Shown here piece after piece: positions 3,001 through 22,574 of a stretch of 64,000 bases of DNA. Under the pieces are notes generated by a model. It made no database searches, was not told the origin of the DNA, and saw only the letters and a list, made by a program, of their open reading frames with translations. How positions within the stretch are numbered: position 1 is the stretch's first letter; each line of letters starts with the position of its first letter. Origin of the DNA: Dehalococcoidia bacterium (GTDB lineage Bacteria > Chloroflexota > Dehalococcoidia > Lucifugimonadales > G958296245); contig OY760867.2 of assembly GCA_963664035.2 (NCBI GenBank), positions 3,212,503 through 3,276,502 on the forward strand, written 5' to 3'. The position numbers and the translations under genes were made by a program.

Positions 3001-6000
3001 CCGTCGTGCCGTCGCCTATCGGCGTCCAGCCCGCGCCGCTGTTCCAGTACGTGTCGCCGGAGTCCGGGCTGCCGTCGCCGTCCGTGTCGAAGTCCAGGTT
3101 GGCGCGAAGCTCGTAGCCGCTGCACGCCGGGTTGCCGGTGTTCGACGCTATGGTGACGACGGACTCGTTGCAGCCCATGTTGTCCTCGGCGTTGGGGAAC
3201 GCCGTGTTATACGACGCTTGGTTCGTCGCGTCGTCCACGACGCCGTCGCCGTCCAGGTCCCAGCGCATGGCGTTTAGCTGCGCGAGGTTGCTCACCTCTA
3301 TGAGGCCGTCGTTGTCGGCGTCGTAGTCGCCCGTGCCCGCGCTCGCCGTCGGCGTCGCGCTCACGACGTTCGACGGCGGCTGGTCCACGCCCGCGCCCTT
3401 CGTCGCTATGACGCGCACGTAGTAGGTAGTGCCCGCCGTCAGCCCGCTCGATATGGTGTGCGTTACCGTGCTGCCGCTCGATATGGTGGCCGAGGAGGGG
3501 CTGCTCCAGTCGGTGGCCGACGTGCTGTTCCACTCCACCGTGTACCCAGTCGCGCCGCTCACCTGCGTCCAGTCCACCTGGATCTTCGTCCCGTCCACCG
3601 ACAGCTTCACGTTCGTCGGCGCGGCGACCTCGTCGTCGTCGTTGATCGTCAGCGTCGGCGCGTCGCCGACGCTCACCCATGGGTCGTCGGTGGCCGCGGT
3701 GATGCTGACCGACTTGTTCACCGCGGTGGACGGGCAGGCCGACGCGCCGCACAGGTAGTTGTTCACCGCCGTCAGCGTGACCGTCGTGGTCGTCGCGCCC
3801 GCCGCGATCGTGCTCGTAGCCGCGCTCAGCGTGTACGAGGCGTCCGCGAGGGGCGTCACCGTCACGTCGTTGTGCCACTCCCCGCTCAGCGTCGCCGTGA
3901 CCGTCGTCACGTTCACCCGGGCCTGCGTGGTCAGCGCGCGCTCCCATATCGTCGTAGGGCTGACGGTGAGCGTCACGCTGGCCCGCTGGGGCGGGATGGT
4001 CAGGTGGTATTGCAGCACCGGGTAGTCGGACGCCGTGCCGAAGTGCCACTGGTCGTCCTTGCCGGTCGCGTCGTTATTGTCCTTGTCGGCGTTGTCGAGG
4101 TCGAACTCCCAGTTGGCGTAGATGCCCGTGAAGCCCGTCGGCGTCTTCAGCTCGCTCGTCGTCTTGCCCGTCCCCTGCCCCGTCGCGGTGATGCCCGACA
4201 CGGTGGTGTCCCAGTAGCTCACGGTCGTCGTGCCGGTGACGTACCGCCCGGTCAGCCCGCCCTTGTTCTCCGTGGGCAATGAGGTTGTGCGCGGGTTTGT
4301 GGAGGGAACGCCGACGGAGTAGCTGGCGGTTATCTTGCCGCCATCCTGCGCCCCCACCAGGCCGCCGGCGTAGAGGTTGTGACTGGTGCCGCCGCTGGCG
4401 GTGGCCGCGGCGTCGGCCTCCGAGTAGCTGGACTTGATTTCGCCGCCCTTGTGGTAGCCGATGAGGCCGCCGGCGTAGGCCGTGCCTGTTCCAAAGGTCT
4501 TCACGTCGGCGGTAGCGGAGCCGCGGGCGTAGGTTGCGACGATATCGCCGCCGTCCTGGTACGCGACCAGCCCGCCGGCGTAGCTGAAGCGCTGGAAGTC
4601 AGAGCCGTGCTGGTTGGCGGTAACGGTGACGCGGGCGTAGCTGGAGATGATGGAGCCGCCCACCTGCCGGCCTATCAACCCGCCGGCGTGGGGGTCTTTG
4701 TCATTGCCGGTGGTGCCCGTGCTCTTGGCCGTGACGCTGCCTGTCACGTAGGTCTTGAATATCTCGCCCGCACTGTAGCCGGCCAGCCCACCCGCGTACA
4801 CCTCGGGGCCGGAGGACCCGGTGATTTCGGAGTTCGTGAAGGTTATGGAGACGTCCTCCACGCCCAGGTTCCTGATTTTCGCGCTGGAACCCAGATCGCC
4901 GAAAAGCCCCGCGAACAGACCGTACCTGTAGTCCTCGGTTTGCGAGCCGGTCCGGCTGCCTGTGCGGTTGATGAACAGGTTGTAGATGACGTAGTTGTTC
5001 CCCTCGAACACGGCGTTGTAGGGGTGGCTGCTGCTGTTGTGAGTTTTGGCCGTATCGGCGATGGGCAGCCAGCCGGCGCCGCTGTTGTAGTAGGTGTCGT
5101 CCGTGCGGTCGCCCGCCGTGTTGTCGTCGAAGTCCAGGTCGCCCGATAGCTCGTAGCCTGTACATGCCGGGTTCCCCGTGTTGTTCGACGCTATCGACAC
5201 CGCCGACTCGTTGCAGCCCATGTTGTCCTCGGCGTTCGGGAAGGCCGCATCGTACTGGGTCGTGTAGTCGTACTCGCCAAGGTTCGTGTCCGTGTAGTCC
5301 CCGTCGTTGTTGTGGTCGTACTTGTCCGCGACGCCGTCGCCGTCCAGGTCGTAGCGGATGGCGTTGAGCTTGGCGAGGCTGTCCACGTCTATCAGGCCGT
5401 CGTTGTCGGCGTCGTAGTCGCCCGTGCCGGCGCTGGCCCTGGTCGTCGCGCTCGCCGTGTCGGACGGCGGCTCGTCCGCGCCGCTCTTGGTCGGCAGCAC
5501 GCGCACGTAGTACGTCGTGTCCGCGGTCAGGCCGCTCGTGATCTTGTGCGTCACCGTGCTGCCGCTCGATATCGTCGCCGTACCGGTGATGCTGCCGGCC
5601 CACGAGTCCGACGTGTTCCACTGGACCTTGTACCCCGTCGCGTCCGTCACGGCCGTCCAGTCCACCTGTATCTTCGTGCCGTCCACGGAGAGCTTGACGC
5701 CCGTCGGCTTGGTCAGCTCGTCGTCGTCGTTGATGGTGATGCTTACGTCCGTGCCCTTGGATACCCACGTCGTGCCCGCCGGGTGCGCGGCCTGCGTGAG
5801 CGCGACGACGGCGTTCGCGGCGTCCGCGAAGTTGTTGACCGCCGTCAGCGTGACCGTCGTGGTCGTCGCGCCCGCCGCGATGGCGCTCGTGGCCGCGCCC
5901 AGCGTGTACACCGCGTTCGTCGGGAAGGTAACCGTCAAGTCGTCGTGCCATGCCGGGTCCAGCGTCGCCGTGACCGTGGCGGCCGTGACGCGGGTCGAGC

Positions 6001-9000: not shown

Positions 9001-11452
9001 ACAGGTTCTTTATCCCGTACTGGTTGCCTTCCAGTATGGCCTCGTAGGTATTGATAGGATTCCAGCCGGAGCCGCTGTTCCAGTAGGTGTCGCCGGAGTC
9101 CGCGCGCCCGTTGCCGTTGGTGTCGAAGTCCAGGTCGTTGGCGAGCTCGTAGCCGATGCACCCGGTGGAGGGGCAGCCCATGGCCGGAGCCGGGTTCGTG
9201 AAAGCGAGGTCGTAGTTCGTATTGCCGATAGCCCCGTTCCCGTCCTGGTCGTGGCGCAGTGCGTTCAGATGGGCCAGGCTGCTTATCTCGATCAGCCCGT
9301 CGCCGTCCGAGTCGTAGTCCTTGCCGGGGCTCTGCTGGGCCGTGGACGCGGGGCCGTCGTCCACGTTCGCGTCCGTCTTGACCGCGTACACCCGCACGTC
9401 GTAGACGGTCGTGCTCGTCAGGCCGGAGATGGTGTGGGAGCACTTGGTGGGAGTCCCCGTGCAGTTGGACGTCGCCACCGTGGTGTCCGCGCCCCACGTG
9501 TTGGACGTGGACGCCTTGTGCGCCGCCTTGTAGTTGTCCGCGCCGGTCACCGGGTCCCACGAGAGTACCAGCGACGTGAAGTCCGTCCCCTTCGCCGCGG
9601 CCAGGTTCGCCGGCGCCGCGAGCTCGTCGTCGTCCGCGATGGTCAGCGTGGGACTGGTGGACGTGGCGATGACACGCATGTCGTTGACGGTGTAACCCGT
9701 CGCGAGGTTGATCGCCTTGTCGGCGGCGTCCACCTTGTCGTTCACCGCCGTGAGCGTCACGGTCGCCGGGTTGGGGGTCGTGGTGGCCGCGGCGAAGGAG
9801 ACCGTGGTCGTGCTGAGGGTGTAGGCCGTGCCGGTCGGCAGCGTCAGCGTTATGGCCTTCCCCCACGCCGCGCTCAGGGTCGGCGTGATCGTCGCGGAGT
9901 TCACCCGGCTCCCGACCGCGCGCTCGTAGATCGTCGTCGGCGACGCCGCGAGCGTGATGGTCGCGCGCTGGTCGGATGCGGTGAGAGACCCGTACTTGAG
10001 CCCCGGGTACTGGCTGGCCGTGCCGAAGTCCCAGGGGTCGTCCGTGCCGTTGGTGAGCTGGTTGTTGTTGTCGGCGTTGTCCACGTCGATGTTCCAGTTG
10101 GCGTAGATGCCGCTGTAGCCCGTCGGCGTCTGCAGCTCGCTCGTCGTCTTGGACGTGCCCTCCACGCTGCTGGAGTCGCCGGACGCCGTCGCGTCCCAGT
10201 AAGAATCGGTGACGGTGAGGCGCCCCGTCGCCTTGGCGGCCACCAGCCCCCCGTCCGTGGTCGCCGTCGTCGCGCCGATGGAGTAGCTGTAGAAGATGCT
10301 CCCGCTCAGGTACCCGACGAGGCCGCCCGCGCGGTTGGCCGCCGCGCCGCTGGCCTCCACGGCGCCCGCGGCGTAGGAGCCCTGGACCGTCCCGCCGAGA
10401 TTGCCCACCAGGCCGCCCGCGTTGGCCGTGGACGAGCTCGAGACGGTGGTGACCACGTCGACGTCGCCCGTCGCGTAGGAGCCGCTGACCGTCCCGGCGG
10501 CGTCGCCCGCGACGCCGCCGCCATGCACGGTCGTGATCGGCCCGGCCGACTCCACGTCCGCGGTGGAGTAGCTGCCGACGACGACCCCGCCGCTCTCCAG
10601 GTACCCCACGATGCCGCCCACGCGCCCGGTGGTGACCGTTGCCGCCGTGTTCCCGGAGTAGTCTTCGACGCGCAGCTTCACCGCGCCGCCGATGACGAAG
10701 GAGTCCTCTATCGTCCCCGCGGAGGCGCCGGCGATGCCGCCCACGCGGACGTCCGAAGAGCCCGCGTGTAGAGGGTTGTGGTCGATGTACACGTCCTTCA
10801 GCGTCAGGTTATGGATCTTCCCCGCGCTTCCCAGGGCTCCGAAGAGGCCCATCCGGTAGTTGGTGTTACTGTCCAGGGTGGAGCCTTCCTGCAAAAGGTA
10901 CAGGTTGGAGATGGCGTACGGCCCGCCGTCGCCGGAGGGGTCGGAGTCGTTGTTGCCGTCGAATGTGGCGGTGAAGGGCCTTTGGGTATCCGACGGCCAG
11001 CCCTGCGTCGCGTACACGCTGCCGATGGCCCACCATCCCCTCTGGGGAAAAGATCTCGACGTCCATATGTTCTTCCAGGTGGACGCGTTCTTGTAGCTGG
11101 AGTCATCGTTGAAGTCCAGGTTGGCGCGCAGCTCGTAGCCTATGCAGCCGCTCTGGGGGCAGCCCATTCCCGCCTCGGGATTCGAGAAGGCGTTGTTGTA
11201 GAACGTGACGTCAGCGGTGTTGCCTGCGAAGCTGGCTGTCGGCGTCCCGTCGCCGTCGACGTCGAAGCCGATCGCCGCCAACTGCTCCAGCTTGGTGATC
11301 TCGATCAGCCCGTCGTCGTCGGTGTCGTAATCGGTGTTGGCGTAGACGGCGCCGCCGCTCCACAGCAGGACGGCGGCCGCCAGCGCGGCCAACGCCAACG
11401 CCGGCCCAGCCCTCAGCCTGCCGGGCCCTGTCCCGCGCCTGGCTCCAATCAT
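1..11452 (-). CDS. Giant secreted GLUG-repeat/FN3 modular surface protein, N-terminal 3,817 codons (3' end lies beyond the left window edge)
   Basis: The minus frame with codon tops = 1 mod 3 is open from ATG (rc of cat 11450-11452) to position 1. No track ORF occupies this frame. My translation starts [69 protein letters not shown]...[21 protein letters not shown]...RVGGIAGAS...RVGGIVGYLESGG. The left edge reads ...[43 protein letters not shown]...DDPWDFGAAYDYPVLDY. DYDxDxDGLIE motifs at ~11.3, 9.3, 7.4, 5.4, 3.3 and 1.36 kb give six ~2-kb modules. The gene is paralogous at DNA level to 48.9-64 kb. Confidence 0.85.
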   Translation of the reverse strand, partial: MIGARRGTGPGRLRAGPALALAALAAAVLLWSGGAVYANTDYDTDDDGLIEITKLEQLAAIGFDVDGDGTPTASFAGNTADVTFYNNAFSNPEAGMGCPQSGCIGYELRANLDFNDDSSYKNASTWKNIWTSRSFPQRGWWAIGSVYATQGWPSDTQRPFTATFDGNNDSDPSGDGGPYAISNLYLLQEGSTLDSNTNYRMGLFGALGSAGKIHNLTLKDVYIDHNPLHAGSSDVRVGGIAGASAGTIEDSFVIGGAVKLRVEDYSGNTAATVTTGRVGGIVGYLESGGVVVGSYSTADVESAGPITTVHGGGVAGDAAGTVSGSYATGDVDVVTTVSSSSTANAGGLVGNLGGTVQGSYAAGAVEASGAAANRAGGLVGYLSGSIFYSYSIGATTATTDGGLVAAKATGRLTVTDSYWDATASGDSSSVEGTSKTTSELQTPTGYSGIYANWNIDVDNADNNNQLTNGTDDPWDFGTASQYPGLKYGSLTASDQRATITLAASPTTIYERAVGSRVNSATITPTLSAAWGKAITLTLPTGTAYTLSTTTVSFAAATTTPNPATVTLTAVNDKVDAADKAINLATGYTVNDMRVIATSTSPTLTIADDDELAAPANLAAAKGTDFTSLVLSWDPVTGADNYKAAHKASTSNTWGADTTVATSNCTGTPTKCSHTISGLTSTTVYDVRVYAVKTDANVDDGPASTAQQSPGKDYDSDGDGLIEISSLAHLNALRHDQDGNGAIGNTNYDLAFTNPAPAMGCPSTGCIGYELANDLDFDTNGNGRADSGDTYWNSGSGWNPINTYEAILEGNQYGIKNLYINRSGSVSTFCGLINTLYDSGSGTGAELRNLYTSNVSVTCVSTADGAFAGALVANNNQGLITDSYVSGSISATSGGGSGARAYAGGFIGNNLGGTVRKSYSGATVTATVSGSAAADAYAGGFVAWNNVGTVEASYATGDVTATGSTNSSSDADAGGLVGRNESTGTLRAVYSTGDVSASAVGTVNAGGLVGYNGPGSTITVGHSIGGVTGDDSGTNNIGGSVGSNSGTVSELYWDTDTTGIADDADTAAPEGKTTSELQTPTEAQKSLPNYPTGLYANWNVNVDGVTGNDNPWDFGTATQYPVLHVRTLPYVLLQSVPTVTWAVANATLCESSKGTDTAVCGASPVTSTTITPTLSGEWKTDLEYTFPTPTAAYTLSATELTIPAGTTTAAGVTLTAVNNKVDAADLTLNLSPTSSHLRQDSSVPAITIKDEDILAKPTGVRLSVDGTKVQVDWTAVSEATGYTIEWSTSSTFTGTPSSGTSSTNSHKVTTGLTSGTTYYFRVTANKTGYDDSAPSDSASVTPTTGDVDYDVDNDGLIDVDSLAKLNAIRYDLDGNGSPETATSTYNAAFPNAEDNMGCGETGATIQSNNTGNPTCSGYELTADLDFNTNNSATSAANPAGADSGDTYWNGGAGWDPIGGVSGGDYTGDFDGNTYTISNLFIDRSSGNYAGLFADLNGTGQTIENVSLVNVDVTLNVSTGSEVNVGGLAGYVESGVTVEDSYTTGRVRAGESSSDPVTLTASDLNSDVGGLVGRSSGSIVSSYSLADVTAHSKSSQNGIATNVGGLVGHASGGSVTASYAGGAVSGNTVAQNNGRVHAGGLVGRNNGPIRASYARGDVSGDYDATATASVTGRARVGGLVGWQVANVTASFSTGAATATGDGTLEAGGLVGHHTGGTNTDSYWDADTSGIADDSDNNSPEGKTTAQLQAPTAYGTGANDIYKDWDIDLDTTAAGLQDAWDFGAANQYPTLKYGILASSVQRAVVTLSVSPTTIWESNTGGSTRVTAATVTATLDPAWHDDLTVTFPTNAVYTLGAATSAIAAGATTTTVTLTAVNNFADAANAVVALTQAAHPAGTTWVSKGTDVSITINDDDELTKPTGVKLSVDGTKIQVDWTAVTDATGYKVQWNTSDSWAGSITGTATISSGSTVTHKITSGLTADTTYYVRVLPTKSGADEPPSDTASATTRASAGTGDYDADNDGLIDVDSLAKLNAIRYDLDGDGVADKYDHNNDGDYTDTNLGEYDYTTQYDAAFPNAEDNMGCNESAVSIASNNTGNPACTGYELSGDLDFDDNTAGDRTDDTYYNSGAGWLPIADTAKTHNSSSHPYNAVFEGNNYVIYNLFINRTGSRTGSQTEDYRYGLFAGLFGDLGSSAKIRNLGVEDVSITFTNSEITGSSGPEVYAGGLAGYSAGEIFKTYVTGSVTAKSTGTTGNDKDPHAGGLIGRQVGGSIISSYARVTVTANQHGSDFQRFSYAGGLVAYQDGGDIVATYARGSATADVKTFGTGTAYAGGLIGYHKGGEIKSSYSEADAAATASGGTSHNLYAGGLVGAQDGGKITASYSVGVPSTNPRTTSLPTENKGGLTGRYVTGTTTVSYWDTTVSGITATGQGTGKTTSELKTPTGFTGIYANWEFDLDNADKDNNDATGKDDQWHFGTASDYPVLQYHLTIPPQRASVTLTVSPTTIWERALTTQARVNVTTVTATLSGEWHNDVTVTPLADASYTLSAATSTIAAGATTTTVTLTAVNNYLCGASACPSTAVNKSVSITAATDDPWVSVGDAPTLTINDDDEVAAPTNVKLSVDGTKIQVDWTQVSGATGYTVEWNSTSATDWSSPSSATISSGSTVTHTISSGLTAGTTYYVRVIATKGAGVDQPPSNVVSATPTASAGTGDYDADNDGLIEVSNLAQLNAMRWDLDGDGVVDDATNQASYNTAFPNAEDNMGCNESVVTIASNTGNPACSGYELRANLDFDTDGDGSPDSGDTYWNSGAGWTPIGDGTTAYTGDFDGNADADSSGDGGPYTISNLHVNLSATSGNSYAGLFGVIGPGATVYNVALAGVSATGSTTGDAVYVGALAGRNRGAVTGSWSLGEVTANRTGSGTLKKAYAGGLVGQNDGTLRASYSRADATATAHSANEGHAGGLVGLNAAGGTIAASYARGGATSNRGTDSGSTPLNNAYAGGLVSDNSGTITASYASGGVTGAGRNADVGGLVGTNTGTITASYSTGAVSATATGGTATTGGLVGGSGPTATVTNSYWDTTTSGITATGSGTGKTTAELQTPTTETGIYANWDVNVDGQTGNDDPWDFGTAGQYPVLDFGAHVVSRQRAVVTLTASPLTIWERALTSPSRVNSTTVTLTPGAAWHEAITVTLPSNAAYTLNPATSAIATSSTAAVIVTLTAVNDKTDASDVTLALNGAAVGPWVYASSTQTITIKDDDELAKPTGLRLSADGTKLRADWTAVDDAEGYKVEWSKSSTFASKSEATVSGGSTTHYKIDPTPALTADTRYYVRVIATKTGGTDDSAPSNPANTKTTTAVAGTGDYDADNDGLIEVSNLAQLNAMRYDLDGNGVVDDSANATAYSTAFPDAEDNMGCGESVVSIASAGTGNPTCSGYELSANLDFDTDGDGSADSGDTYWDGGKGWWPIAHDSTSADASSAPFNTTFEGNDYVISNLFINRSGARTGSSGSYRYELFAGLFGDLGQSAVVRNLGLEGVSVTFANASAAVGDLGVYAGGLAGYSRARIVDTYVTGAVTATANASSNTDKPPHAGGLVGKQVGGSITSSYARAAVTATQDSNDASAKSYAGGLAGYQDTANIVASYSRGSAGATVKATSGGEAHAGGLVGYHKGGEIKSSYSAANARSTAAGGAATLNAGGLVGSQDGGKITASYSTGIAASATTSVSTVTSNVGGLTGRHGSGITAYSYWDTTTSGITTSGQGTGKTTAELKTPTATTSTIYANWDLDLDNADNDSSDATGQDDPWDFGAAYDYPVLDYDGMAIP
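11339..11452 (-). other. Sec-type signal peptide of giant gene 1 (38 aa)
   Basis: MIGARRGTGPGRLRAGPALALAALAAAVLLWSGGAVYA has a basic n-region, an Ala/Leu hydrophobic core and a VYA-N cleavage-like site. The first Ca-binding motif follows directly. Confidence 0.6.
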
Positions 11453-11672
11453 GGGCCGCCGCCCCCAATCGAGACCGACCGCCAGCTTCCAAAACAACGC
11501 CAAACCCTCCCCCCAGATATGACGTTCTGATATTAAGCCGCATCAAATGATACCATACCTTAACCAGCTATACCACGCATTCATGAAATCACGATGAAAT
11601 ATCAACCTATTTCATTACTTTAACAACAATCATCCCAAGAACGATCAACCCCCACACCTTACGCCCAAGTGT
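11453..11672 (-). promoter_or_regulatory. AT-rich upstream region of giant gene 1 (putative promoter/leader)
   Basis: This is the only markedly AT-rich stretch in the first 11.7 kb (11520-11640). On the minus strand TGgTATCAT (rc of 11547-11555) resembles an extended -10 box ~95 nt upstream of the ATG. A GGGGG run sits ~10 nt upstream of the ATG. There is no convincing -35, and the TSS is unsupported. Confidence 0.25.
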
Positions 11673-11728
11673 CCACTCCCCACTATCCACTATCCACCAT
11701 CCACTATCCCCTATCCCCTAACCACCTT
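11673..11728. repeat. Eight tandem CCACTAW-type heptads (orphan array)
   Basis: ccactcc ccactat ccactat ccaccat ccactat cccctat cccctaa ccacctt, read directly from the sequence. Confidence 0.9.
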
Positions 11729-11756
11729 GCCACCCGAAGAACGCGCGTGCTATACT
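11727..11756 (+). promoter_or_regulatory. Sigma70-like promoter candidate TTGCCA-18nt-TATACT
   Basis: TTGCCA at 11727-11732, an 18-nt spacer, then TATACT at 11751-11756. It points toward the repeat region and Uma2 gene 1. This is sequence resemblance only. Confidence 0.25.
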
Positions 11757-11783
11757 CCCCCCATGCACCACCGCGCACATACT

Positions 11784-11813
11784 CGTAGGGGCGGGTTTCA
11801 AACCCGCCCTCCC
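11784..11813. repeat. GC-rich hairpin unit (family GGGAGGGC-stem-loop-CCCTACGGG), inverted orientation
   Basis: cgtaggggcgggtttcaaacccgccctccc. It has perfect 10-bp arms gggcgggttt/aaacccgccc (11789-11809). Related units lie at 12020-12052, 12067-12096 and 13818-13850. Confidence 0.85.
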
Positions 11814-11851
11814 AATCCCGACATGCGGCCATGCCGCGCCCTCGTCCGTCG

Positions 11852-11931
11852 TGTCTCATTCTGTCTCATTACTGTCTCATTCTGTCTATTTCGCGTCTCA
11901 TTTTGCCTCGTTCGTGTCTCCCGCTGTCTCA
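11852..11931 (+). repeat. Eight helically phased TGTCTCA-like boxes (4 x 21-bp tandem units); candidate transcription-factor binding array
   Basis: Box starts are 11852, 11862, 11873, 11883, 11894, 11904, 11915 and 11925 (tgtctca x3, tgtctat, cgtctca, tgcctcg, tgtctcc, tgtctca). Spacings are 10,11,10,11,10,11,10. Two inverted boxes lie at 11947-11953 and 11957-11963. Confidence 0.8.
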
Positions 11932-12002
11932 CGGCCCGTAGCTGGAATAGACAAAAAGAGACACTTCCGAGGAAAATCAGGGTGAGGGCTCCCCCACTAA
12001 CC

Positions 12003-12125
12003 GTATCTGTTCAGAGTATGGGAGGGCAGCCACAAGGGCTGCACCCTACGGGATGGAAGCCGTAGTCGTAGGGGCGTCCCTTGTGGGCGCCCTAGGTGAG
12101 GAACGCACCAACTCTGAACAGTTAC
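12003..12125. mobile_element. 123-bp MITE-like element with 15-bp terminal inverted repeats and an 8-bp target-site duplication
   Basis: TIR-L is gtatctgttcagagt (12003-12017). TIR-R is actctgaacagttac (12111-12125), whose rc gtaactgttcagagt matches 14/15. The direct repeat cactaacc abuts both ends (11995-12002 and 12126-12133). The interior is two mutually inverted GC-rich hairpin units (12020-12052, 12067-12096). No coding capacity. Confidence 0.7.
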
Positions 12126-12152
12126 CACTAACCACTGACCACTAACCACCTC
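12126..12152. repeat. CCACTAA/CCACTGA heptad array upstream of Uma2 gene 1 (insertion target of the MITE-like element)
   Basis: ccactaa ccactga ccactaa ccacctc at 12125-12152. Removing the element plus one TSD copy restores a continuous heptad run with 11994-12002. Confidence 0.8.
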
Positions 12153-12183
12153 CTGTGCTACCATACCGGCAGGAGCGAGCGCC

Positions 12184-12966
12184 ATGGCCACGACACCGAC
12201 AGTCCTGACCCCCCACAGGCCCACAGAGGCCGATGAGGTCTTCTACCCCGAAACGGACGGTATGCCATTGCCAGACGGATATGAGCAGGAGCCGCATTTC
12301 ACAGACACTGTTTCGACTCTGAGACTCCACCTGGGCGGCCCCACGACCGCCGTCAGCGGCGACACCTTCGTCTACTACGTCGAGGGCGACCCCAAGAAGT
12401 GGGTGTCCCCGGACTGCTACGTCGCCTTTGGCGTGGACGTGGAGTCCATAAGGGGGTTCAACACCTACCGCGTGTGGGAGACGGGCAAGGCACCCGACTT
12501 CGTGCTGGAGATAGGCTCTTCGTCGACGGCGTCGAACGACGTGGGTCCCAAGCGCGAGTTGTACGCGAGCCTTGGCGTCCGGGAGTACTGGCGCTTCGAT
12601 CCCACGGGCGGCGACCACTACGGCGAGCCGCTGGTTGGCGAGTACCTGGTTGGGGGCGAGTACCGCCGCTTCGACATGAGCGCCGGGCCGGGCGTCGCGC
12701 CGCGGGGCCACAGCCCGCTGCTGGGCCTGGACCTGTGCTGGACGGAGGGCCGCCTGCGCTTCTACGACCCGGCGGCTGGCCGCTGGCTGGAGAACCACAC
12801 CGAGTCCGCCGCCCGCGCCGATGTCGCCGAGTATCTCGCCGCTACCGAGCAGACCCGCGCCAATGCCGCCGAGTATCTCGCCGCCGCCGAGCAGACCCGC
12901 GCCAATGCCGCCGAAGCCCGCGTGGCCGAGATGGAAGCCGAACTGCGTCGCCTGCGCGGCGAGTAA
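12184..12966 (+). CDS. Uma2-family (DUF820) PD-(D/E)xK endonuclease, copy 1
   Basis: ATG is preceded by AGGAG 9 nt upstream. Motifs: FYPETDGMPLPDG, SPDCYVAFGV, KAPDFVLEIGSSSTASNDVGPKRELYASLGVREYWRFDP. The C-terminus is a coiled-coil tail ...AEARVAEMEAELRRLRGE. Confidence 0.85.
   Translation: MATTPTVLTPHRPTEADEVFYPETDGMPLPDGYEQEPHFTDTVSTLRLHLGGPTTAVSGDTFVYYVEGDPKKWVSPDCYVAFGVDVESIRGFNTYRVWETGKAPDFVLEIGSSSTASNDVGPKRELYASLGVREYWRFDPTGGDHYGEPLVGEYLVGGEYRRFDMSAGPGVAPRGHSPLLGLDLCWTEGRLRFYDPAAGRWLENHTESAARADVAEYLAATEQTRANAAEYLAAAEQTRANAAEARVAEMEAELRRLRGE
12826..12909 (+). repeat. In-frame 42-bp tandem duplication in the Uma2 copy-1 tail
   Basis: gccgagtatctcgccgc(t/c)(a/g)ccgagcagacccgcgccaatgcc occurs twice (12826-12867, 12868-12909). 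It encodes AEYLAATEQTRANA/AEYLAAAEQTRANA. Copy 2 carries one unit. Confidence 0.9.
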
Positions 12967-12975
12967 CTCCCCTCC

Positions 12976-12996
12976 CCACTATCCACTATCCACTGG
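12976..12996. repeat. CCACTAT heptads upstream of Uma2 gene 2
   Basis: ccactat ccactat ccactgg, ending 10 nt before the ATG at 13007. Confidence 0.8.
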
Positions 12997-13006
12997 AGCA
13001 AGAGCC

Positions 13007-13768
13007 ATGGCCACGACACCCACAGTCCTGATCCCCGACAGGCCCGCCGAGGCCGATGAGGTCTTCTACCCCGAAACGGACGGTATGCCATTGCCAGACG
13101 GACTTAAGCAGGAGCCGCATTTCACTGAGATCGTTTCGACGCTGAGACTCCACCTGGGCAGCCCTACTACCCTCGTCAGCGGCGACACCTTCGTCTACTA
13201 CGTAGAAGGCGACCCCGGGAGACGGCTATCCCCCGACTGCTACGTCGCCTTTGGGGTGGACGTGGAGGCCATGATGCGCTTGAATAGCTACCGCGTGTGG
13301 GAAGCAGACAAGGCCCCCGACTTCGTGCTGGAGATAGGCTCTCAGTCCACCGCCTCCAACGACGTAGGCCCCAAGCGCGACCTCTACGCGAGCCTGGGTG
13401 TCCGCGAGTACTGGCGCTTCGATCCGACGGGCGGCGACCACTACGGCGAGCCGCTGGTGGGGGAGTACCTGGTGGAAGGCGAATACTGCCGATTCGAGAT
13501 GAGCGTCGGGCCGGGGGTCGCGCCGCGGGGCCGCAGCCCGCTGCTGGGCCTCGACCTGTGCTGGACGGAGGGCCGCCTGCGCTTCTACGACCCCGCGGCT
13601 GCCCGCTGGCTGGAGAACCACACCGAGACCGCCGCCCGCGCCGACGCCGAGCAGACAGCCCGCGAGGCCGCCGAGTATCTCGCCGCCGCCGAGCAGACCC
13701 GCGCCGATGCCGCCGAAGCCCGCATGGCCGAGTTGGAAGCCGAGCTGCGGCGGCTGCGCGGCGAATAG
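13007..13768 (+). CDS. Uma2-family (DUF820) endonuclease, copy 2 (tandem paralog)
   Basis: An internal ATG at 13007 (GGAG 9 nt upstream) gives MATTPTVLIPDRPAEADEVFYPETDGMPLPDG..., collinear with copy 1. I counted 8 mismatches in the first 118 nt. The track's longer ORF (12821..) overlaps the end of copy 1 and is rejected. Confidence 0.85.
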   Translation: MATTPTVLIPDRPAEADEVFYPETDGMPLPDGLKQEPHFTEIVSTLRLHLGSPTTLVSGDTFVYYVEGDPGRRLSPDCYVAFGVDVEAMMRLNSYRVWEADKAPDFVLEIGSQSTASNDVGPKRDLYASLGVREYWRFDPTGGDHYGEPLVGEYLVEGEYCRFEMSVGPGVAPRGRSPLLGLDLCWTEGRLRFYDPAAARWLENHTETAARADAEQTAREAAEYLAAAEQTRADAAEARMAELEAELRRLRGE

Positions 13769-13775
13769 CGAATAG

Positions 13776-13897
13776 CCAAAATCCCCCACCTAAATGGCGG
13801 TGACGCTCTACGGCAAGGGGGAGGGCTGGTTTGAAACCAGCCCCTACGGGTGATGGCCGATAGATATGGCGCTGAACCTGGAGGTGGGGGATTTGGG
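13776..13897. mobile_element. Second small inverted-repeat-bounded element carrying one GC-rich hairpin unit
   Basis: ccaaaatcccccacct (13776-13791) pairs with aggtgggggatttggg (13882-13897), with a 13-bp perfect core and 15/16 overall. It encloses hairpin unit 13818-13850 (gggctggttt g aaaccagccc). The possible 4-bp flank repeat atag (13772-13775, 13898-13901) is weak. Confidence 0.4.
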
Positions 13898-13979
13898 ATA
13901 GCTCCCTTCGTCCCTTCGCACCCGTGACGGTGATATGCTGTAGATACCAGCGTCGCTGGCGTGACGGAGGTGAAGAAAG

Positions 13980-16355
13980 ATGACGGAACGAGACGAGCGC
14001 GGCCGGCGGATAGAGGCGCTGCAGGAGCGGCTGACCCGGCTGAGCGAGGCCAGTCTCAGGATCAACGACAGCCTCGATCTCGACGTGGTCCTGCAGAGGG
14101 TGCTGGACAGCGCCCGCGCGCTGACCGGCGCTCGCTACGGCGTGATGACCACCCTGGACGAGTCGGGGCGGATAGACAACTTCCTGTCCTCCGGCCTCAA
14201 CCAGGAGGAGGCGCAGGAGTTGTGGGCGATGCCGGGCGGCATGGACCTCTTCGACTACCTGAACTCCATCCCCGAACCGTTGCGCGTCCCCGACTTCGCC
14301 GAACACGCCAGGTCGATGGGCCTGCCCGAATTCCTGGAGCCCGCCCCGATGAGCGCCTTCCTGACCGTCCCGATCCGGCACCGGGGCGACAGGGTGGGCA
14401 ACGTCCACATAGCCAATAGGGACCCCGGCGAGGAGTTCAGCCGCGAGGACGAGGAGACGCTGGTAATGTTCGCCTCCCAGGCCGCGCTGGTCATCGCCAA
14501 CGCGCGCAGGCACCGGGAGGAGCAGCGCGCCAGGATGGCGCTGGAGACGCTGGTGGAGGCATCTCCCGTGGGCGTCGTGGTCTTCGACGCCAGGACCGGA
14601 GCGCCGCTCTCGTTCAACCAGGAGGCGAGCAGGATCGTGGGCAGCCTGATGGACCCCGACCAGCCGCCCCAGGGGCTGCTGGAGGAGATGACCATCCGGC
14701 GGGCGGACGGACGCGAGGTCTCGCTGAAGGAGTGGCCTCTGGCCGAGGCGCTGAGCGGCGGGGAGACCGTGCGGGCCGAGGAGATCGTCATGACGGTCCC
14801 CGACGGCCGGAGCGTCACCACGCTGCTCAACGCCACGCCCATCCGCTCCGAGGGCGGCGAGCTCGATCGCTTCGTCATCATCATGCAGGACATGACGCCG
14901 CTGGAGGACCTGCAGCGGCTGCGCGCCGAGTTCCTCGGTATGGTCAGCCACGAGCTGCGCACGCCCCTGACCTCCATCCGCGGCTCGGCCACCACGATGC
15001 TGGACGCCGCGCCGGACCTGGATCCGGCGGAGCTGGGCCAGTTCCTGCGGATCATAGTCGACCAGTCCGACAACATGCGCGAGCTGATCGACGACCTGCT
15101 CGACGTGGCGCGCATCGAAACGGGCGCGCTGTCGGTCAGCCCCGAGCCGGCCGAGATGGCCCGGCTGGTGGACAGGGCCAGGAACACCTTCCTGAGCGGC
15201 GGGGGCAGGGACACCCTGAGCATCAACCTCGCGCCCGACCTGCCCCTGGTGATGGCCGACAGGCGGCGCATAGCCCAGGTCATCGTCAACCTGCTCTCCA
15301 ACGCCGCGCGGCACTCGCCCGAATCGTCGACGATCAGGGTCGGCGCGGTCCGGGACGGGCTCCACGTGGCGGTCTCCGTCGCCGACGATGGCCGGGGCAT
15401 ACCGTCGGAGCACCTCCCGCGCCTGTTCCGGAAGTTCTCTGGGTCCGACGCGAGGGGGCAGGGCGACACGGGGCTGGGCCTCGCCATATGCAGGGGGATA
15501 GTGGAAGCCCACGGAGGGCGCATCTGGGCCGAGAGCCAAGGGCCGAGCCTGGGGGCGCGGTTCACCTTCACCATCCCGATAGCGGTGGAGGCCGGAGCCG
15601 AGATCGACCTGCCCTCGGAGCGCTCGCGGCGCGCACAGGGAGGAGACGCCGCCCCCATCCTCGTGCTGGACGACGACCCGATGACTCTGAGGCACGTGCG
15701 CAACGCGCTCTCCGGGGGAGGCTACGACCCCATCGTGACCGCCGATCCGGAGGAGGCGCTCCGCCTGATGGTGGAGAACCGGCCCCGCATGGTCCTGCTC
15801 GACATGGTGCTGCCAGGACACGACGGCATAGACCTGATGGGCGACATCTTCGCCATCTCCGACATTCCGGTCGTCTTCCTGTCCGCCTACGGCCAGCATG
15901 AGACGGTGACGCGCGCCTTCCAGGCGGGAGCGGCCGACTACATCGTCAAGCCGTTCACGCCGACCGAGCTCGTGGCCAGGGTGAGGGCGGCCCTGCTCAG
16001 GAGGGAAGAGCGCTTCCGGTCCGAGCCGTCGGAACCCTACGTGCTGGGCGACCTGACCATCGACTACGCCATGAGGCTGGTCTCCCTGGCCGGCCAGCCG
16101 GTGCAGCTAACGGCCAAGGAGTACGACCTGCTGCGCACGCTGTCGACCAACGCGGGGCGGGTGCTGACGCACGACCAGTTGCTGCGCAGGGTCTGGGGCA
16201 CCGGGAAGCGCGGCAACGTGCGGACGCTCCGCACCCACCTCAGGAGGCTGCGCCAGAAGCTGAACGAGGACGCCGGCAACCCCACGTACATCTTCTCCGA
16301 GCCCCGCGTAGGCTACCGCATGGCCGAGGGCGAGCCGCCCGAGCAGGATTCCTAA
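13980..16355 (+). CDS. Soluble hybrid two-component protein: GAF-PAS-HisKA-HATPase_c-REC-OmpR/PhoB-type winged-helix
   Basis: GGAGGTG lies 8 nt upstream of the ATG. The GAF-like N-terminus reads ...FLTVPIRHRGDRVGNVHIANR...EDEETLVMFASQAALVIANARRH. H-box is MVSHELRTPL (~14944-14973). N-box is NLLSNAARHS. G-boxes are DDGRGI and GLGLAICRGIVEAHGG. REC: ILVLDDDP, MVLLDMVLPGHDG, YIVKPF. The C-terminal trans_reg_C region reads LTAKEYDLLRTLSTNAGRVLTHDQLLRRVWG...RTHLRRLRQKL...PRVGYRM. I saw no hydrophobic TM segment. Confidence 0.9.
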   Translation: MTERDERGRRIEALQERLTRLSEASLRINDSLDLDVVLQRVLDSARALTGARYGVMTTLDESGRIDNFLSSGLNQEEAQELWAMPGGMDLFDYLNSIPEPLRVPDFAEHARSMGLPEFLEPAPMSAFLTVPIRHRGDRVGNVHIANRDPGEEFSREDEETLVMFASQAALVIANARRHREEQRARMALETLVEASPVGVVVFDARTGAPLSFNQEASRIVGSLMDPDQPPQGLLEEMTIRRADGREVSLKEWPLAEALSGGETVRAEEIVMTVPDGRSVTTLLNATPIRSEGGELDRFVIIMQDMTPLEDLQRLRAEFLGMVSHELRTPLTSIRGSATTMLDAAPDLDPAELGQFLRIIVDQSDNMRELIDDLLDVARIETGALSVSPEPAEMARLVDRARNTFLSGGGRDTLSINLAPDLPLVMADRRRIAQVIVNLLSNAARHSPESSTIRVGAVRDGLHVAVSVADDGRGIPSEHLPRLFRKFSGSDARGQGDTGLGLAICRGIVEAHGGRIWAESQGPSLGARFTFTIPIAVEAGAEIDLPSERSRRAQGGDAAPILVLDDDPMTLRHVRNALSGGGYDPIVTADPEEALRLMVENRPRMVLLDMVLPGHDGIDLMGDIFAISDIPVVFLSAYGQHETVTRAFQAGAADYIVKPFTPTELVARVRAALLRREERFRSEPSEPYVLGDLTIDYAMRLVSLAGQPVQLTAKEYDLLRTLSTNAGRVLTHDQLLRRVWGTGKRGNVRTLRTHLRRLRQKLNEDAGNPTYIFSEPRVGYRMAEGEPPEQDS

Positions 16356-17482: not shown

Positions 17483-20400
17483 TCACGCCTCCGTCCATCT
17501 GACAGAGATCCCCAACTGCTCGAACGCCTCGACGATTCTCTGATTCAGAACGTCTTGGGAGATGCCGGCGTCGCTGGTAACCTCTATGGTCACGCTCAAC
17601 TCTGCCCCGGCGTCCTGCTCTTGCAGGACCTTAAACAGGTATGGCTGAAGGTTGTTGGTCTTGGCTACGGCGAGGTCATCGACATCGAGCCTGACCCGCG
17701 TCAGGCGCTTGGGCGGGGGCGGGACCACCTGGTCGCTGATCTTGCGGACAGCCTTACCGTGCTCTTCAGCAGGGGCCTGTTTACTCTCGCTCCCGGTCTC
17801 ATCCTTTTCGCTCCCCGGCTCCTCCGGGCGCAATTCCTCGCGGATGAGCTGAAGCATTTCTCCCTTCACCAGCGAGGCTGAGCCGTCGAAGAGAGTTGCC
17901 AGGCCGTCGACGCCTTCGGGCTTCTCGACCAACGCCTGGTACTTGCTCGTAGCGACATCGCCTATAGCGACGGCCCATAAACCCTGGGAGACGCCCTCCC
18001 GGATGCAGGAGCGAAGGGTCTCCTCCCTATTGGGAAGGATCGGGAGGTAGGTCCATTGGGGAAACCTTCGGCTGGCTTCGGACAAGTCCAGGGCGTCCGT
18101 CTCATCCTTCCACAGGCTCGGAGCGATCTTGGCGTTGAAGTAGACGGCGCCCATCTTCGGAAGCACTTTCGGCGCGCCATAGTCCTGGTCCGAGAGGCGC
18201 TGCACCACTCTTCGCGCAATCTGTTCGCCCGTGGTGGCGGGCACGGGCAGAGACAGCGGCTCCATCCCCTGCTCATCCGGGTAGAACACCCACCTGTAGG
18301 CGGTCGCCACGCTCGTCTTCAGGCTGTCGCGCTTGGCTCTGCTCCGGCTTTCCAGGTCCTTCACTTCGAGGTTGCTGAGGTCGATTGACTTCCTGCCCGC
18401 CGACCCTACAACGGACTCATAGGCCAACACTTCACGGACCGCGTGCTCCGCCCGGCCCCAGAACTCCCTGTCGGGCGCTACAAGCACCAGGGCGTTCCTC
18501 CACTGGCGGAGACCGCCGCCCACCCTGTCCCATAGCTGACGCACCCGTTCCCTATCGGCGCCGGCGGTCGTCCCGCCGTTGCCGGACTCGCCAACGGCGT
18601 ACCTGGGATCCAGCACTGCGACGGCGGGGTCCGGGTTGTCGGGAATCTGGCCGTCCGCGCCCGCCCAGGGGATCACCCTGAACCCGGCAGCCGTCCCGAT
18701 TACTCCGTCAACCTCCGTGCGCAGCCGGTCCGCCACAATGGACTGCGACTGTTCGTCGGCCCTCTGCGCGATCACCCTATAGATGTTTGGACGTGTCTGG
18801 AAGCTGAGCGAATCGCCCTCCCGGTGTACGTACCAGAGCGTCTCCTCCAGCGAGCTCAGGACCTCCGTTACGTACTCGGGGCCGACGTTGGGAGCCACGG
18901 TGCCTAGGCGAAGCTCCTGCGGCGTGCCTCCTCTCCGTTCCATGCCCCCGAACGAGTGCATGAGCACCGTCGTGGCGACTCCCCGCGCGATGTGGAATCG
19001 CGCGTAGTCGCTCCCGCGATTCCGGTCCTGCATGTCGGCGTGGGCGTCTCCGCCAACGATGTCAGCCGCCACCACGCCGTCGTAGCCGCCGCCTGCGCCG
19101 GCGGCGCTGACGATCCGCGTGCGGGTCCGCTCCCGTTCCAGGTCTACGTGCGCCGACTGTATCGCATGGGCCTCGCGCCGGTTGGCCCACTGGTCGGCGA
19201 CCACTCCCGCCAGGAGCTGGAGGGTCGCCCGGGTCCTGGGAAAGTCCGGCGCGGTCGACCACTTCTTGTAGATGACGTCGATCAACTCCGGGTGGAGGGG
19301 ATACGCGGCCCTCTGCTGTTCCAGGTATTCGGGAGTCAGGGCCGCCGCGTCGTACAGCCCCGGCGTCTTCTCATAGACCTGCCTGTACGCGTCCGCGACT
19401 CGCTCCGCTGCTCCGGCGTCCACGCGCTCGAACAGCCGCCTGCGCATGAGCACGTAGATGTCCTCGTCGTTGATGGGCGTCCGCTTGGAGACCACGCGGT
19501 CGGCGCGCGGCTGCAACTCCTCCATGATGCTCAGCTCGTTGCGGAGCTGCTCAGGATCGAGGCCGCCGAACTCACGCCTGCTCTTGGGCAGTGAGATGAG
19601 CACGCAGACGCCGGGAACGTTGCTGGCAAGCTGGAGGGTCTCCTGGAGGAACTGCACCGTCTGCCGGTAGAGGTTTAGCGTGCGGCGGGAGCTGGAGTAT
19701 CTCAGCTTCACGAGGTAGCTGACGATCTCATCGAGCAGGATCAGGCATGGGGACGCCTCCTCCAGCACCTGCCTGAAGACGGCGTTGCCGGGAGCCTCGC
19801 CCCGGCCGTCCGAGTCGATGACCAGCTTGTGGAAGATCCCGACACCCACCTGGTGGGCAAGCTCTCCCCAGAGCGTGTTTACCGACGCGCCATCCTCCTT
19901 CATCGCCGGTTCGCTGCCCGCCTCCTGGCCGTCGAACACCAGCACGCGGGCGCCGGCGGGGATGCGTACTCCGCCCAGCGCCTCCGCGACGGAGGGTATT
20001 TTCGACGCCTCTTGGGGGCTGCCGATCAGGTGGTAGAGCGTCAGGAGGGCGTGGGTCTTGCCGCCGCCGAACGGCGTCTGCACCTCGGTGACAGCGGGCC
20101 CCTGCCCTCCGCTCATCCTACTGGCTATGTCCCGCACCATCTGCGTCAGGTTCTCGGTGAAGTAGGTCTGGGAGAGGAAGCGCTTGGGGTCGAGGTATTC
20201 GTCGCGCGCCGACCCCGCGAAGACGCCGCCGAGGGTGGCCGCGAAGAGCGACTCGTCGATGTGGGCCGGGTCCCGGAAGCCCTCACGAGGCGTACACGCC
20301 TCCCACCAGTACGGAATCTGCCCTTTCGTCGCGGGCATGGCCTCCCGAACCGCGGGAGCCTCTGCCTGCGTCATGCCAAGGACCTGCTTGCGTATCGCCT

Positions 20401-20836
20401 CTACCTCGTCGGCCTCCGGGAGGCCCGCCGGGCGCAAGAGCTGTGCCATGGCGTACAGGGCGTGCCCGACCTCATCGGCGAGCATGTCGCCCGTTCGCGG
20501 GTGCGCCCACGTGTTGCGGGTCTCCCCCACCTGCAGGAGCCACGATTGCGTCTGCTTGAAGTTGTGGTAAGTATCCTCGAAGGCGCGGTCGAAGTTCTTG
20601 GTGACGACGCGCACGAGGTGGCCCGCGTCGAGAAGGTCCGCCCTGTCCGCGCCAGGGTTTCTGTCCAGCTCGCGATTTAGGCCCCGCCTCTGCGGGGTGG
20701 TCATGGCGTCGAGGACGCCGCGCTCCCACCAATGGCCCTTGAATGACGCGGTGAGCCGCTCCTTCACGAGCCTGCGCATGGCGTCGGTGTACAGCTTGAG
20801 GCCGCGCCCCAGGGCCGCGTGGTTGGTCTCGGTCAT
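17483..20836 (-). CDS. HEPN (Swt1-like) - DUF499 P-loop ATPase fusion, 1,117 aa
   Basis: AAGGGA lies 6 nt upstream of the ATG. The helical N-terminal ~150 aa carry the Rx4H motif RNTWAH (20501-20518). The DUF499 signatures are LFAATLGGV, TYFTENL and QTPFGGGKTHALLTLYHL (Walker A, 20051-20074), plus the Walker B-like CLILLDEIVSYL. Confidence 0.8.
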   Translation of the reverse strand: MTETNHAALGRGLKLYTDAMRRLVKERLTASFKGHWWERGVLDAMTTPQRRGLNRELDRNPGADRADLLDAGHLVRVVTKNFDRAFEDTYHNFKQTQSWLLQVGETRNTWAHPRTGDMLADEVGHALYAMAQLLRPAGLPEADEVEAIRKQVLGMTQAEAPAVREAMPATKGQIPYWWEACTPREGFRDPAHIDESLFAATLGGVFAGSARDEYLDPKRFLSQTYFTENLTQMVRDIASRMSGGQGPAVTEVQTPFGGGKTHALLTLYHLIGSPQEASKIPSVAEALGGVRIPAGARVLVFDGQEAGSEPAMKEDGASVNTLWGELAHQVGVGIFHKLVIDSDGRGEAPGNAVFRQVLEEASPCLILLDEIVSYLVKLRYSSSRRTLNLYRQTVQFLQETLQLASNVPGVCVLISLPKSRREFGGLDPEQLRNELSIMEELQPRADRVVSKRTPINDEDIYVLMRRRLFERVDAGAAERVADAYRQVYEKTPGLYDAAALTPEYLEQQRAAYPLHPELIDVIYKKWSTAPDFPRTRATLQLLAGVVADQWANRREAHAIQSAHVDLERERTRTRIVSAAGAGGGYDGVVAADIVGGDAHADMQDRNRGSDYARFHIARGVATTVLMHSFGGMERRGGTPQELRLGTVAPNVGPEYVTEVLSSLEETLWYVHREGDSLSFQTRPNIYRVIAQRADEQSQSIVADRLRTEVDGVIGTAAGFRVIPWAGADGQIPDNPDPAVAVLDPRYAVGESGNGGTTAGADRERVRQLWDRVGGGLRQWRNALVLVAPDREFWGRAEHAVREVLAYESVVGSAGRKSIDLSNLEVKDLESRSRAKRDSLKTSVATAYRWVFYPDEQGMEPLSLPVPATTGEQIARRVVQRLSDQDYGAPKVLPKMGAVYFNAKIAPSLWKDETDALDLSEASRRFPQWTYLPILPNREETLRSCIREGVSQGLWAVAIGDVATSKYQALVEKPEGVDGLATLFDGSASLVKGEMLQLIREELRPEEPGSEKDETGSESKQAPAEEHGKAVRKISDQVVPPPPKRLTRVRLDVDDLAVAKTNNLQPYLFKVLQEQDAGAELSVTIEVTSDAGISQDVLNQRIVEAFEQLGISVRWTEA

Positions 20837-20856
20837 TGCATCCCTTACTTAGGATA

Positions 20857-21477: not shown

Positions 21478-21478
21478 T

Positions 21479-22537: not shown

Positions 22538-22574
22538 CGCCCCACTCCTTCCGGCACAACAAATTATACTTGAT

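Follow-up and report, generated by a model that had tools for sequence, protein, structure and literature searches.

Which protein would read a run of short, evenly spaced boxes lying between a gene for a giant protein and a sensor-regulator gene, and which gene would such binding serve? The question arises in a 64,000-nucleotide stretch of Dehalococcoidia bacterium contig OY760867.2 (positions 3,212,503 to 3,276,502), here called the window, in which eight TGTCTCA-type boxes stand in the 731-bp intergenic region between giant gene 1 and two Uma2 genes. The initial annotation took this array for a Pho-box-like operator of the neighbouring kinase-regulator fusion. Its general reading, that of helically phased protein-binding boxes in a regulatory region, fits all of the findings and has close analogues elsewhere. 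The observation is confirmed and the interpretation is right in kind, but it is most likely wrong on both the binder and the target.

The phased boxes and the module that carries them

Reading and scoring the sequence confirmed all eight boxes, whose start-to-start steps are 10, 11, 10, 11, 10, 11 and 10 bp, in strict alternation (Table 1). Both inverted copies that had been reported are present, at 11947–11953 and 11957–11963, and both are imperfect. The distances also hold, with 400–479 bp from the array to the giant-gene ATG (11452) and 253–332 bp to the Uma2 ATG (12184). The 21-bp unit can be refined: Tandem Repeats Finder gives periods of 10, 21 and 42 across 11849–11931, but the true repeat unit that it returns is the 10-mer TGTCTCATTC. 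With up to two mismatches allowed in a box and steps of 10 or 11 bp, the longest phased chain comprises eight boxes in the window versus no more than four in any of 300 windows simulated with a first-order Markov model. The 17-mer TGTCTCATTCTGTCTCA occurs three times with up to three mismatches, against an expectation of 0.05. The 64-kb window contains four exact TGTCTCA heptamers, every one within the array; this is the level of shuffled sequence (mean 4.6), so that it is the clustering and not the count that is unusual. Phased direct repeats of about 6–7 bp, 10–11 bp from centre to centre, are the arrangement of an OmpR/PhoB-type operator, and several one-turn phased direct repeats of variable orientation are that of Cox/Apl/Xis-type arrays; the window has both.

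As judged by comparison of the DNA, the array supplies the boxes of a promoter-plus-operator module that is dispersed and characteristic of Dehalococcoidia-type Chloroflexota. The module in the window measures about 260–400 bp, and window positions 11722–11985 are homologous to intergenic modules in other genomes of this type (loci carry our numbers, such as L094), where they lie beside unrelated genes. The shared parts are a promoter GAAC-N5-GTGCTATACT, direct boxes, the linker CCGTAGCTGAA and inverted boxes. L094 is 75% identical to window 11852–11965 over 116 bp and keeps the full order of parts, namely the promoter gaacgcacgtGCTATCCT (in the window gaacgcgcgtGCTATACT), a hairpin, about eight degenerate direct boxes, aagctgaa, three perfect TGAGACA boxes and then CTGTTCAGACT ... 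AGTCTGAACAGTTACC. It carries the CTGTTCAGA...TCTGAACAGTTACC inverted repeat as well, with a left arm, CTGTTCAGACT, that matches the one in the window. Four compact copies (L022, L095, L104 and L115) come from one genome.

In a six-way alignment of the window with L094 and these four, the invariant columns are GAAC and GTGCTAT..T in the promoter, CTGTC in the last direct box, TAGCTG in the linker and GAGACA-N3-GAGACA, and the two inverted boxes of the window are the counterpart of three perfect TGAGACA boxes in other copies. All six keep the promoter pattern GAAC-N5-GTGCTATAMT. The fuller design, (T)TGAC/TCGACA ... GAAC-N5-GTGCTATAMT, is found once per locus and is present at window 11727–11756. 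All six also run from direct TGTCTCA boxes through the linker to TGAGACA boxes 10 bp apart; the linker of the window, CCGTAGCTGGA, corresponds to CCGTAGCTGAA in L104 and L115, CCCTAGCTGAG in L095 and CCAAAGCTGAA in L094. A sign of selection on the boxes among the four CBDEFX01 copies (28 of 28 positions invariant versus 70 of 119) was discounted, as 21 of the 28 positions had been required by the search pattern.

The window promoter, a strong one of the sigma-70 type, has 10 of 12 consensus matches plus TG in a consensus scan and points away from the giant gene, and the array begins about 90 bp downstream of it; the second inverted-box region overlaps only a weak promoter-like match (9 of 12). 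At least four copies of the module are present in CBDEFX01 and at least five array copies in OZ251500.1, while the 64-kb window has one. Their neighbours are pentapeptide-repeat and RidA genes in L094, a thiamine-enzyme-like open reading frame (ORF) in L095 and Uma2 in the window. Since the neighbours differ everywhere, the window element appears to be one copy of a dispersed promoter-plus-box module and not an element tied to giant genes. The initial annotation had named a generic dispersed repeat unrelated to promoters as the outcome that would speak against it; the element is indeed dispersed, but it carries its own promoter.

Box words and recognition helices of a family of small helix-turn-helix proteins

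In OZ251500.1 (L036 and L117; P0001/P0002) the array precedes a gene for a 145-residue helix-turn-helix (HTH) protein, a gene present there in multiple copies. Downstream of a promoter, eight or nine boxes reading TGTCTCA or CGTCTCA follow one another at 10/11 bp, and a TGAGACA box is placed at or across the ATG, a few bases inside the ORF. At L014, where the gene is 30% identical, and at L079, with a related gene from a Gemmataceae genome, the start codon is overlapped by three inverted boxes; at L122 it is overlapped by a single one. Box arrays of the HTH genes span the region from promoter to start codon, and the encoded proteins have about 130–170 residues. The promoter design of the orphan modules, GAAC-N5-GTGCTATAMT, also occurs at three HTH genes (L122, L272 and L273), once per locus. 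The family is large, with 622 clusters at 50% identity (E ≤ 1e-10), and its recognition helix is hypervariable at three positions among 124 family representatives. The proteins match small-terminase families in PHROG (phrog_2538, E = 1.5e-10 to 2e-5), and the genes occupy syntenic chromosomal positions in several genomes. A conserved gene for a protein of about 125 residues usually follows, with the motifs LERYLVCQLAQV ... DRW ... PD ... C.CPAR and no match in Pfam, PHROG or NCBIfam. A palindrome, TGTCACA-N3-4-TGTGACA or ATGTCGCAACTGCGACA, lies directly upstream of the −35 element (TTGCGC) of the HTH genes and suggests a second, dimeric regulator at these promoters.

The strongest evidence, albeit indirect, that the HTH proteins would read the boxes is the co-variation of box word and recognition helix. 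The loci for this comparison were picked by protein similarity and not by boxes. All of them have repeated words between promoter and start codon, and across 13 HTH genes the word changes with the recognition helix. ISRATLAR goes with TGTCTCA (L036, L117), and ISLATLRR with CCGCTCA at L123, which is syntenic with L117 and about 81–89% identical to it in protein sequence, depending on the measure. The other pairs are ISISTLRR with TGAACAG (L118, L119), ISISTLTR with TGAGCAG (L121, L268), ISIATLKR with TGAGCC (L265), ISISTLKR or ISITTLKR with TGGACC (L267, L120) and INRTTLHR with GTTGCA (L269, L270). At five loci different words occupy the same positions, at about −127, −116 and −106 in direct, −93 in inverted and −50 and −40 in direct orientation, not all six being filled in each. 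The word of L118 and L119 is also the CTGTTCA/TGAACAG found in the inverted repeat of the window.

TGTCTCA arrays are found well outside this family. A scan for three exact boxes 10–11 bp apart, with one genome per species, gave at least 116 stretches from many phyla, and many of these have TGAGACA copies nearby. The set is heterogeneous: a Pfam scan of 104 flanking ORFs revealed no family common to the three-box loci and no sharing beyond three sigma-54 activators and four luciferase-like genes. At 11 loci spread over many phyla (L005, L028, L078, L107, L111, L116 and others) a gene for a REC-PAS-sigma54-AAA-HTH_8 activator lies beside a TGTCTCA run, and in several of these it ends 10–60 bp from the array. 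In some of them, such as L028, the run closes as a palindrome, TGTCTCA-N2-TGAGACA (TGT-N10-ACA), which we take to resemble the NifA upstream activator sequence. The HTH of the sigma-54 activators bears the same (I/V)SRAT(L/F)YR helix as the TGTCTCA-linked Chloroflexota proteins. In viral contigs, 58 three-box TGTCTCA arrays were counted, against 17 and 66 for two control heptamers of the same composition, and TGTCTCA was therefore rejected as a special word; none of the 58 loci has an SRATLYR-type HTH nearby. A literature search on TGTCTCA direct repeats returned nothing relevant.

We favour, at somewhat less than an even chance, the reading of the window array as an orphan operator that is bound in trans by an oligomeric HTH protein encoded elsewhere and gates its own promoter towards Uma2. 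A gene at another place on the 3.5-Mb contig would encode the binder, a protein of this family whose recognition helix is S-R-A-T-L-(Y/A)-R. By analogy with SPP1 pac and P2 Cox, one protomer would occupy each box, one to a DNA turn, and some 85 bp shortly after the transcription start would be covered by the oligomer or wrapped round it, with transcription towards Uma2 (12184) being blocked or tuned. At the gene of the HTH protein itself the same binding would amount to autoregulation, and at the orphan modules to gating of whatever lies downstream.

A number of points weigh against the orphan-operator reading. There is no HTH-family gene in the 64-kb window. Half of the direct boxes in the window are degenerate and both inverted boxes imperfect, as expected of a decaying copy, and the perfection of the boxes in the CBDEFX01 copies is largely a matter of ascertainment, because the scan required three perfect boxes. 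Uma2 has a promoter-like site of its own near its ATG, as read from the sequence, which makes control by the upstream promoter uncertain. Control heptamers form arrays about as commonly, so phased heptamer arrays are general and TGTCTCA is not special per se. As for the protein, the small-terminase likeness is suggested by PHROG scores that are only moderate, the match to Pfam HTH_Tnp_1_2 is below threshold, and neither NCBIfam nor the sequences in the PDB gave any match. The AlphaFold (AF2) model is poor (pLDDT 74, pTM 0.35), and a Foldseek search with it found no match at E ≤ 0.001.

On its own the array is one more phased operator of a known kind; what it adds is that it points to uncharacterised proteins, a family whose recognition code can be read. 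The family offers a natural data set for working out such a code, and with it the binding mode of HTH proteins that form rings or filaments can be tested directly. We offer as a long shot the wider proposal that Chloroflexota hold a large family of chromosomal small-terminase relatives with private box words, for which orphan modules are targets in trans. This would be a new DNA-wrapping regulon or, more radically, a set of dispersed pac-like marks sending chromosomal DNA into packaging or transfer without an adjacent phage.

Competing explanations and the genes around the array

The 731-bp intergenic region is composite. From the giant gene it passes through an A+T-rich stretch, the TCCACTA tract, the promoter, a REP-like hairpin, the array with its inverted boxes, an inverted repeat around two more REP-like hairpins and the ACCACTA tract to the Uma2 start. 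The heptamer tracts on both sides suggest that the module sits within a heptamer tract. The hairpin between promoter and array is missing at this position from the compact copies L022, L104 and L115 in the six-way alignment. Hairpins of the type GTAGGGGCG...CGCCCCTAC lie inside the module at 11786–11811 and 12067–12097, with a third stem at about 12030–12055, and occur beside modules of other Dehalococcoidia-type genomes as well (L022, L104). The heptamer CCACTAT recurs between the Uma2 ORFs at 12976–12994, a Tepidisphaeraceae locus (L097) has such heptamers beside a TGTCTCA array, and the flanking heptamers resemble the short tandemly repeated heptamers of cyanobacteria.

Table 1. Positions of the features described in the window and at the loci compared with it.
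Feature	Position	Strand	Sequence and remarks
7-4-7 direct repeat, window	11583–11600		ATGAAAT-CACG-ATGAAAT
7-4-7 direct repeat, L275	5694–5711		ATGACAT-TGTG-ATGACAT
Heptamer tandem repeat, left of module	11672–11725	+	TCCACTA, 7.7 copies
Promoter-like site	11727–11756	+	TTGCCA-18-TATACT, extended −10 (GTGCTATACT); expected transcription start ~11763; reads into the array
REP-like G+C-rich hairpin	11786–11811		GTAGGGGCGGGTTTCAAACCCGCCC; between promoter and array; from sequence and fold; insertion in the alignment
Direct-box array	11852–11931	+	Eight TGTCTCA-type boxes, unit TGTCTCATTC; homologous to L094 3392–3470
Direct boxes 1–4	11852, 11862, 11873, 11883	+	TGTCTCA, TGTCTCA, TGTCTCA, TGTCTAT (2 mismatches); read and scored
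Direct boxes 5–8	11894, 11904, 11915, 11925	+	CGTCTCA (1 mismatch), TGCCTCG (2), TGTCTCC (1), TGTCTCA
Linker between direct and inverted boxes	11936–11946	+	CCGTAGCTGGA; conserved in the alignment
Two inverted boxes	11947–11963	−	ATAGACA, 11947–11953 (2 mismatches to TGAGACA); AGAGACA, 11957–11963 (1 mismatch)
Inverted repeat, left arm	12007–12017	+	CTGTTCAGAGT; contains CTGTTCA (TGAACAG type, inverted)
Inverted repeat, right arm	12111–12121	+	ACTCTGAACAG(TTACC); closes a strongly folding stretch with two REP-like hairpins
Heptamer tandem repeat, right of module	12124–12149	+	ACCACTA, 3.7 copies
Gene for ~125-residue protein	L117 6427–6798; L118 5410–5793; L120 5411–5797; L121 3519–3905; L123 4943–5314
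Palindrome upstream of HTH genes	L117 ~4750–4770; L118/L119 ~4783–4800; L120 ~4784–4801; also L265–L268

Among the rivals of the orphan-operator reading the one that survives best, which we nevertheless regard as unlikely, is decay, with the array now without function, a relic of the 5' region of an HTH gene or of a moved module that stayed behind, along with the two Uma2 genes, between the giant gene and the kinase-regulator gene. Only four of the eight direct boxes are perfect and neither inverted box is, no HTH ORF or vestige of one lies downstream, the segment is inserted relative to L275, and REP-like hairpins have invaded the module. On the other hand, the promoter is intact and near consensus, the 10/11-bp spacing is strict over all eight boxes, the degenerate ones included, without insertions or deletions, and orphan copies elsewhere retain the order of parts.

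It is improbable, in our estimate, that the array is a pac-like recognition site for a small-terminase-like ring, marking chromosomal DNA for packaging by a phage, a satellite or an agent resembling a gene transfer agent instead of controlling transcription. The best scores of the linked protein family are against small-terminase families, terS-terL of one Clostridiaceae prophage have an array some 310 bp upstream, and eight to nine boxes would suit a ring of 8–11 subunits. Repeats over the promoter and the start of the gene, the layout of SPP1 pac (PMC4737164), are seen at the small-terminase-like genes of L036, L117, L014 and L079 but not at the window copy. Moreover, large terminase and virion genes were found neither in the window nor among the called genes beside the Chloroflexota HTH genes at six loci, where portal, capsid and integrase genes were likewise not found. 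The partner gene encodes the 125-residue protein without assigned function, the HTH genes are syntenic on the chromosomes of several genomes, and none of the viral-contig arrays has an SRATLYR-type gene beside it.

The proposal of the initial annotation, an extended Pho-box-like operator through which the winged helix-turn-helix (wHTH) domain of the fusion at 13980–16355 regulates the giant gene, Uma2 or both, now appears quite improbable. Direct repeats spaced by about one turn of DNA are what OmpR/PhoB regulators bind, and the fusion does have a full Trans_reg_C domain, its order GAF-PAS-HisKA-HATPase-REC-Trans_reg_C being as annotated; ArsR-type and glyoxalase genes follow it. The fusion gene is part of the conserved core, and over 100 clusters show 65–75% identity. 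In L275, the one orthologous giant-gene/regulator locus compared, a 72% identical regulator is directly divergent from an 11,279-residue giant gene, and the pairing looks ancestral. The giant Glug/fn3 gene and the regulator are separated by 497 bp there (5504–6000) versus 2.5 kb in the window (11453–13979). With the L275 pairing as direct as this, the extra 2 kb of the window (heptamer tracts, module and both Uma2 genes) would seem to have been inserted; the intergenic DNA of the two loci is not alignable. The 497-bp interval contains neither TGTCTCA nor TGAGACA, even with one mismatch, so the regulator, if it controls the giant gene, does not need the array; as far as this one locus goes, the boxes are not conserved with regulator and target.

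TGTCTCA is tied to a different HTH family, and a tblastn search with the fusion protein of the window against 8-kb pieces found no OmpR-type regulator near the homologous modules. A cyanobacterial OmpR-type gene (L076) ends right at a three-box TGTCTCA array, but one OmpR-linked locus among the 116 matches listed is about the estimated chance level. An operator of this type would sit on, or directly before, a −35 element that is weak or missing, whereas the array lies downstream of a complete TTGCCA-18-TATACT promoter. The two inserted Uma2 genes part it from the regulator. Control of giant gene 1 by the array fares no better, given that the conserved promoter points away from that gene and that modules elsewhere lie beside unrelated genes.

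Leaving the array aside, each of the two intergenic regions holds just one exact repeat of 10/11-bp period, a 7-4-7 direct repeat (Table 1) that in the window lies about 130–150 bp upstream of the giant-gene ATG. Read on the strand of the giant gene it is AT(T/G)TCAT-N4-AT(T/G)TCAT, close to a Pho box, at two loci only. We regard the repeat at 11583–11600 as a better candidate site for the wHTH regulator than the array, and for control of the giant gene it is the place to look. The local picture is corrected accordingly, with the giant gene and the kinase-regulator as conserved partners and the array with the two Uma2 genes as an apparent later insertion.

That the array is a slippage-generated minisatellite, a 10/21-bp variable-number repeat without binding function, is very unlikely. 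Its first three units are nearly identical, and large collections contain many three-box arrays of arbitrary heptamers. Against this origin, inverted copies, the conserved linker and the promoter go with the array in several genomes, the units alternate between 10 and 11 bp, and the L094 array has diverged by substitutions with its register kept.

We give very little credence to the element acting as RNA, through a hairpin of direct and inverted boxes in a 5' leader, or as a small protein from the leaderless ORF at 11763–12065. Lying downstream of the promoter, the array is probably transcribed, and UGUCUCA is complementary to UGAGACA, but the array folds no better than shuffled sequence (z = −1.6, with 17 of 200 shuffles doing as well). 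For the 428-nt leader region as a whole z is −4.2, a strong fold that the inverted repeat and the REP-like hairpins account for. A search of Rfam with 11000–14200 at E ≤ 1 gave only a chance match to a long non-coding RNA. The ORF reads the array as VSFCLxx heptads, the 21-bp period being seven codons, but by eye the third codon positions in the array are G+C-poor for a G+C-rich genome. Coding by this ORF was rejected, since in L094 a different frame runs through the boxes and an early stop occurs.

Scarcely credible is the iteron-like alternative of the initial annotation, taken here to mean a replication origin or a centromere of plasmid type whose iterons would be the boxes. Phased repeats do lie beside an A+T-rich stretch (GC 0.44 at 11500–11699), and a nearby heptamer tract has what we take by eye, from our own comparison with the textbook consensus, to be a likeness to a DnaA box. 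On the other side, no rep, dnaA or par genes were found beside the array, related chromosomes carry the module in multiple scattered copies, other intergenic sites have the heptamer tracts too, and nothing suggests an origin or centromere.

The other genes of the window include several further repeats. The two Uma2 ORFs (12184–12966 and 12821–13768) overlap by 146 bp, both have partial Uma2 domain matches only, and a 42-bp tandem repeat (2.5 copies, 93% matches) lies at 12812–12914 in the overlap. Giant gene 1, on the minus strand, encodes a product with a signal-peptide-like start and runs past the window edge. Giant gene 2 (30749–63736; 10,995 residues) has a 24/36-bp tandem array near its 3' end, at 30977–31549, and no TGTCTCA-type box was found in the 264 bp available upstream of it. 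Both giant genes contain modules spaced by about 2 kb and marked by CGTCGTAGTC (DYD on the coding strand), at 1360, 3307, 5398 and 7393 and over 50803–60946. Between them, a defence-like island on the minus strand (17483–30554) encodes a DUF499 ATPase with an N-terminal Swt1-like HEPN domain, DUF3226 and DUF1156 proteins, two AAA_21/AAA_15 (AbiEii/OLD-like) ATPases and an SNF2/ResIII helicase with a NOV_C domain.

Comparison with known phased-repeat systems

The parC site of plasmid R1 comprises two sets of five 11-bp iterons around a promoter, to which ParR, a ribbon-helix-helix protein with ParM as its partner, binds cooperatively in autoregulation. The Chloroflexota arrays share with it the many phased direct repeats of 10–11 bp at a promoter; unlike parC, they have no partition genes found with them here, and their copies are chromosomal and dispersed. 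In a Pho box, too, 7-bp direct repeats recur about every 11 bp on the same face of the DNA, and a wHTH regulator gene lies 2 kb from the array. The window differs in having eight units and inverted copies where two to four direct units are usual, in the location of the array downstream of a complete −35/−10 promoter instead of in place of the −35 element, and in the absence of the array at L275.

P2 Cox binds at least six boxes, 10–11 bp apart and of mixed orientation, with one protomer to a turn and the DNA wound round a protein filament, and it represses a promoter under autoregulation (PMC3936717). More generally, sites of recombination-directionality factors are direct repeats one helix turn apart (PMC7498355). 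As with P2 Cox and 186 Apl, the array has six or more short boxes of mixed orientation at 10–11 bp and covers at least 70 bp. The HTH proteins differ from the Xis/Cox winged helices in their likeness to small terminases, and the modules are dispersed and chromosomal with a promoter of their own. No integrase, att site or phage genes were found beside the array, and no integrase or phage genes among the called genes at the HTH loci.

In SPP1 pac, direct repeats extend in sets across the promoters and into the beginning of the gene for the small terminase. In the ring that this protein (G1P) forms in SPP1 and SF6, the HTH motifs lie about one DNA turn apart, with about 100 bp of DNA proposed to wrap around it (PMC4737164). 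The Chloroflexota HTH genes are similar in having repeats over the promoter and the start of the gene and in their PHROG scores against small terminases. They differ in that no large terminase or virion genes were seen beside them, and the window copy lacks an HTH gene altogether. The isolated DNA-binding domain of the SF6 protein showed little specificity for the sequence of the repeats. In the present family, by contrast, the box word co-varies with the recognition helix, which argues for base-specific reading of the boxes.

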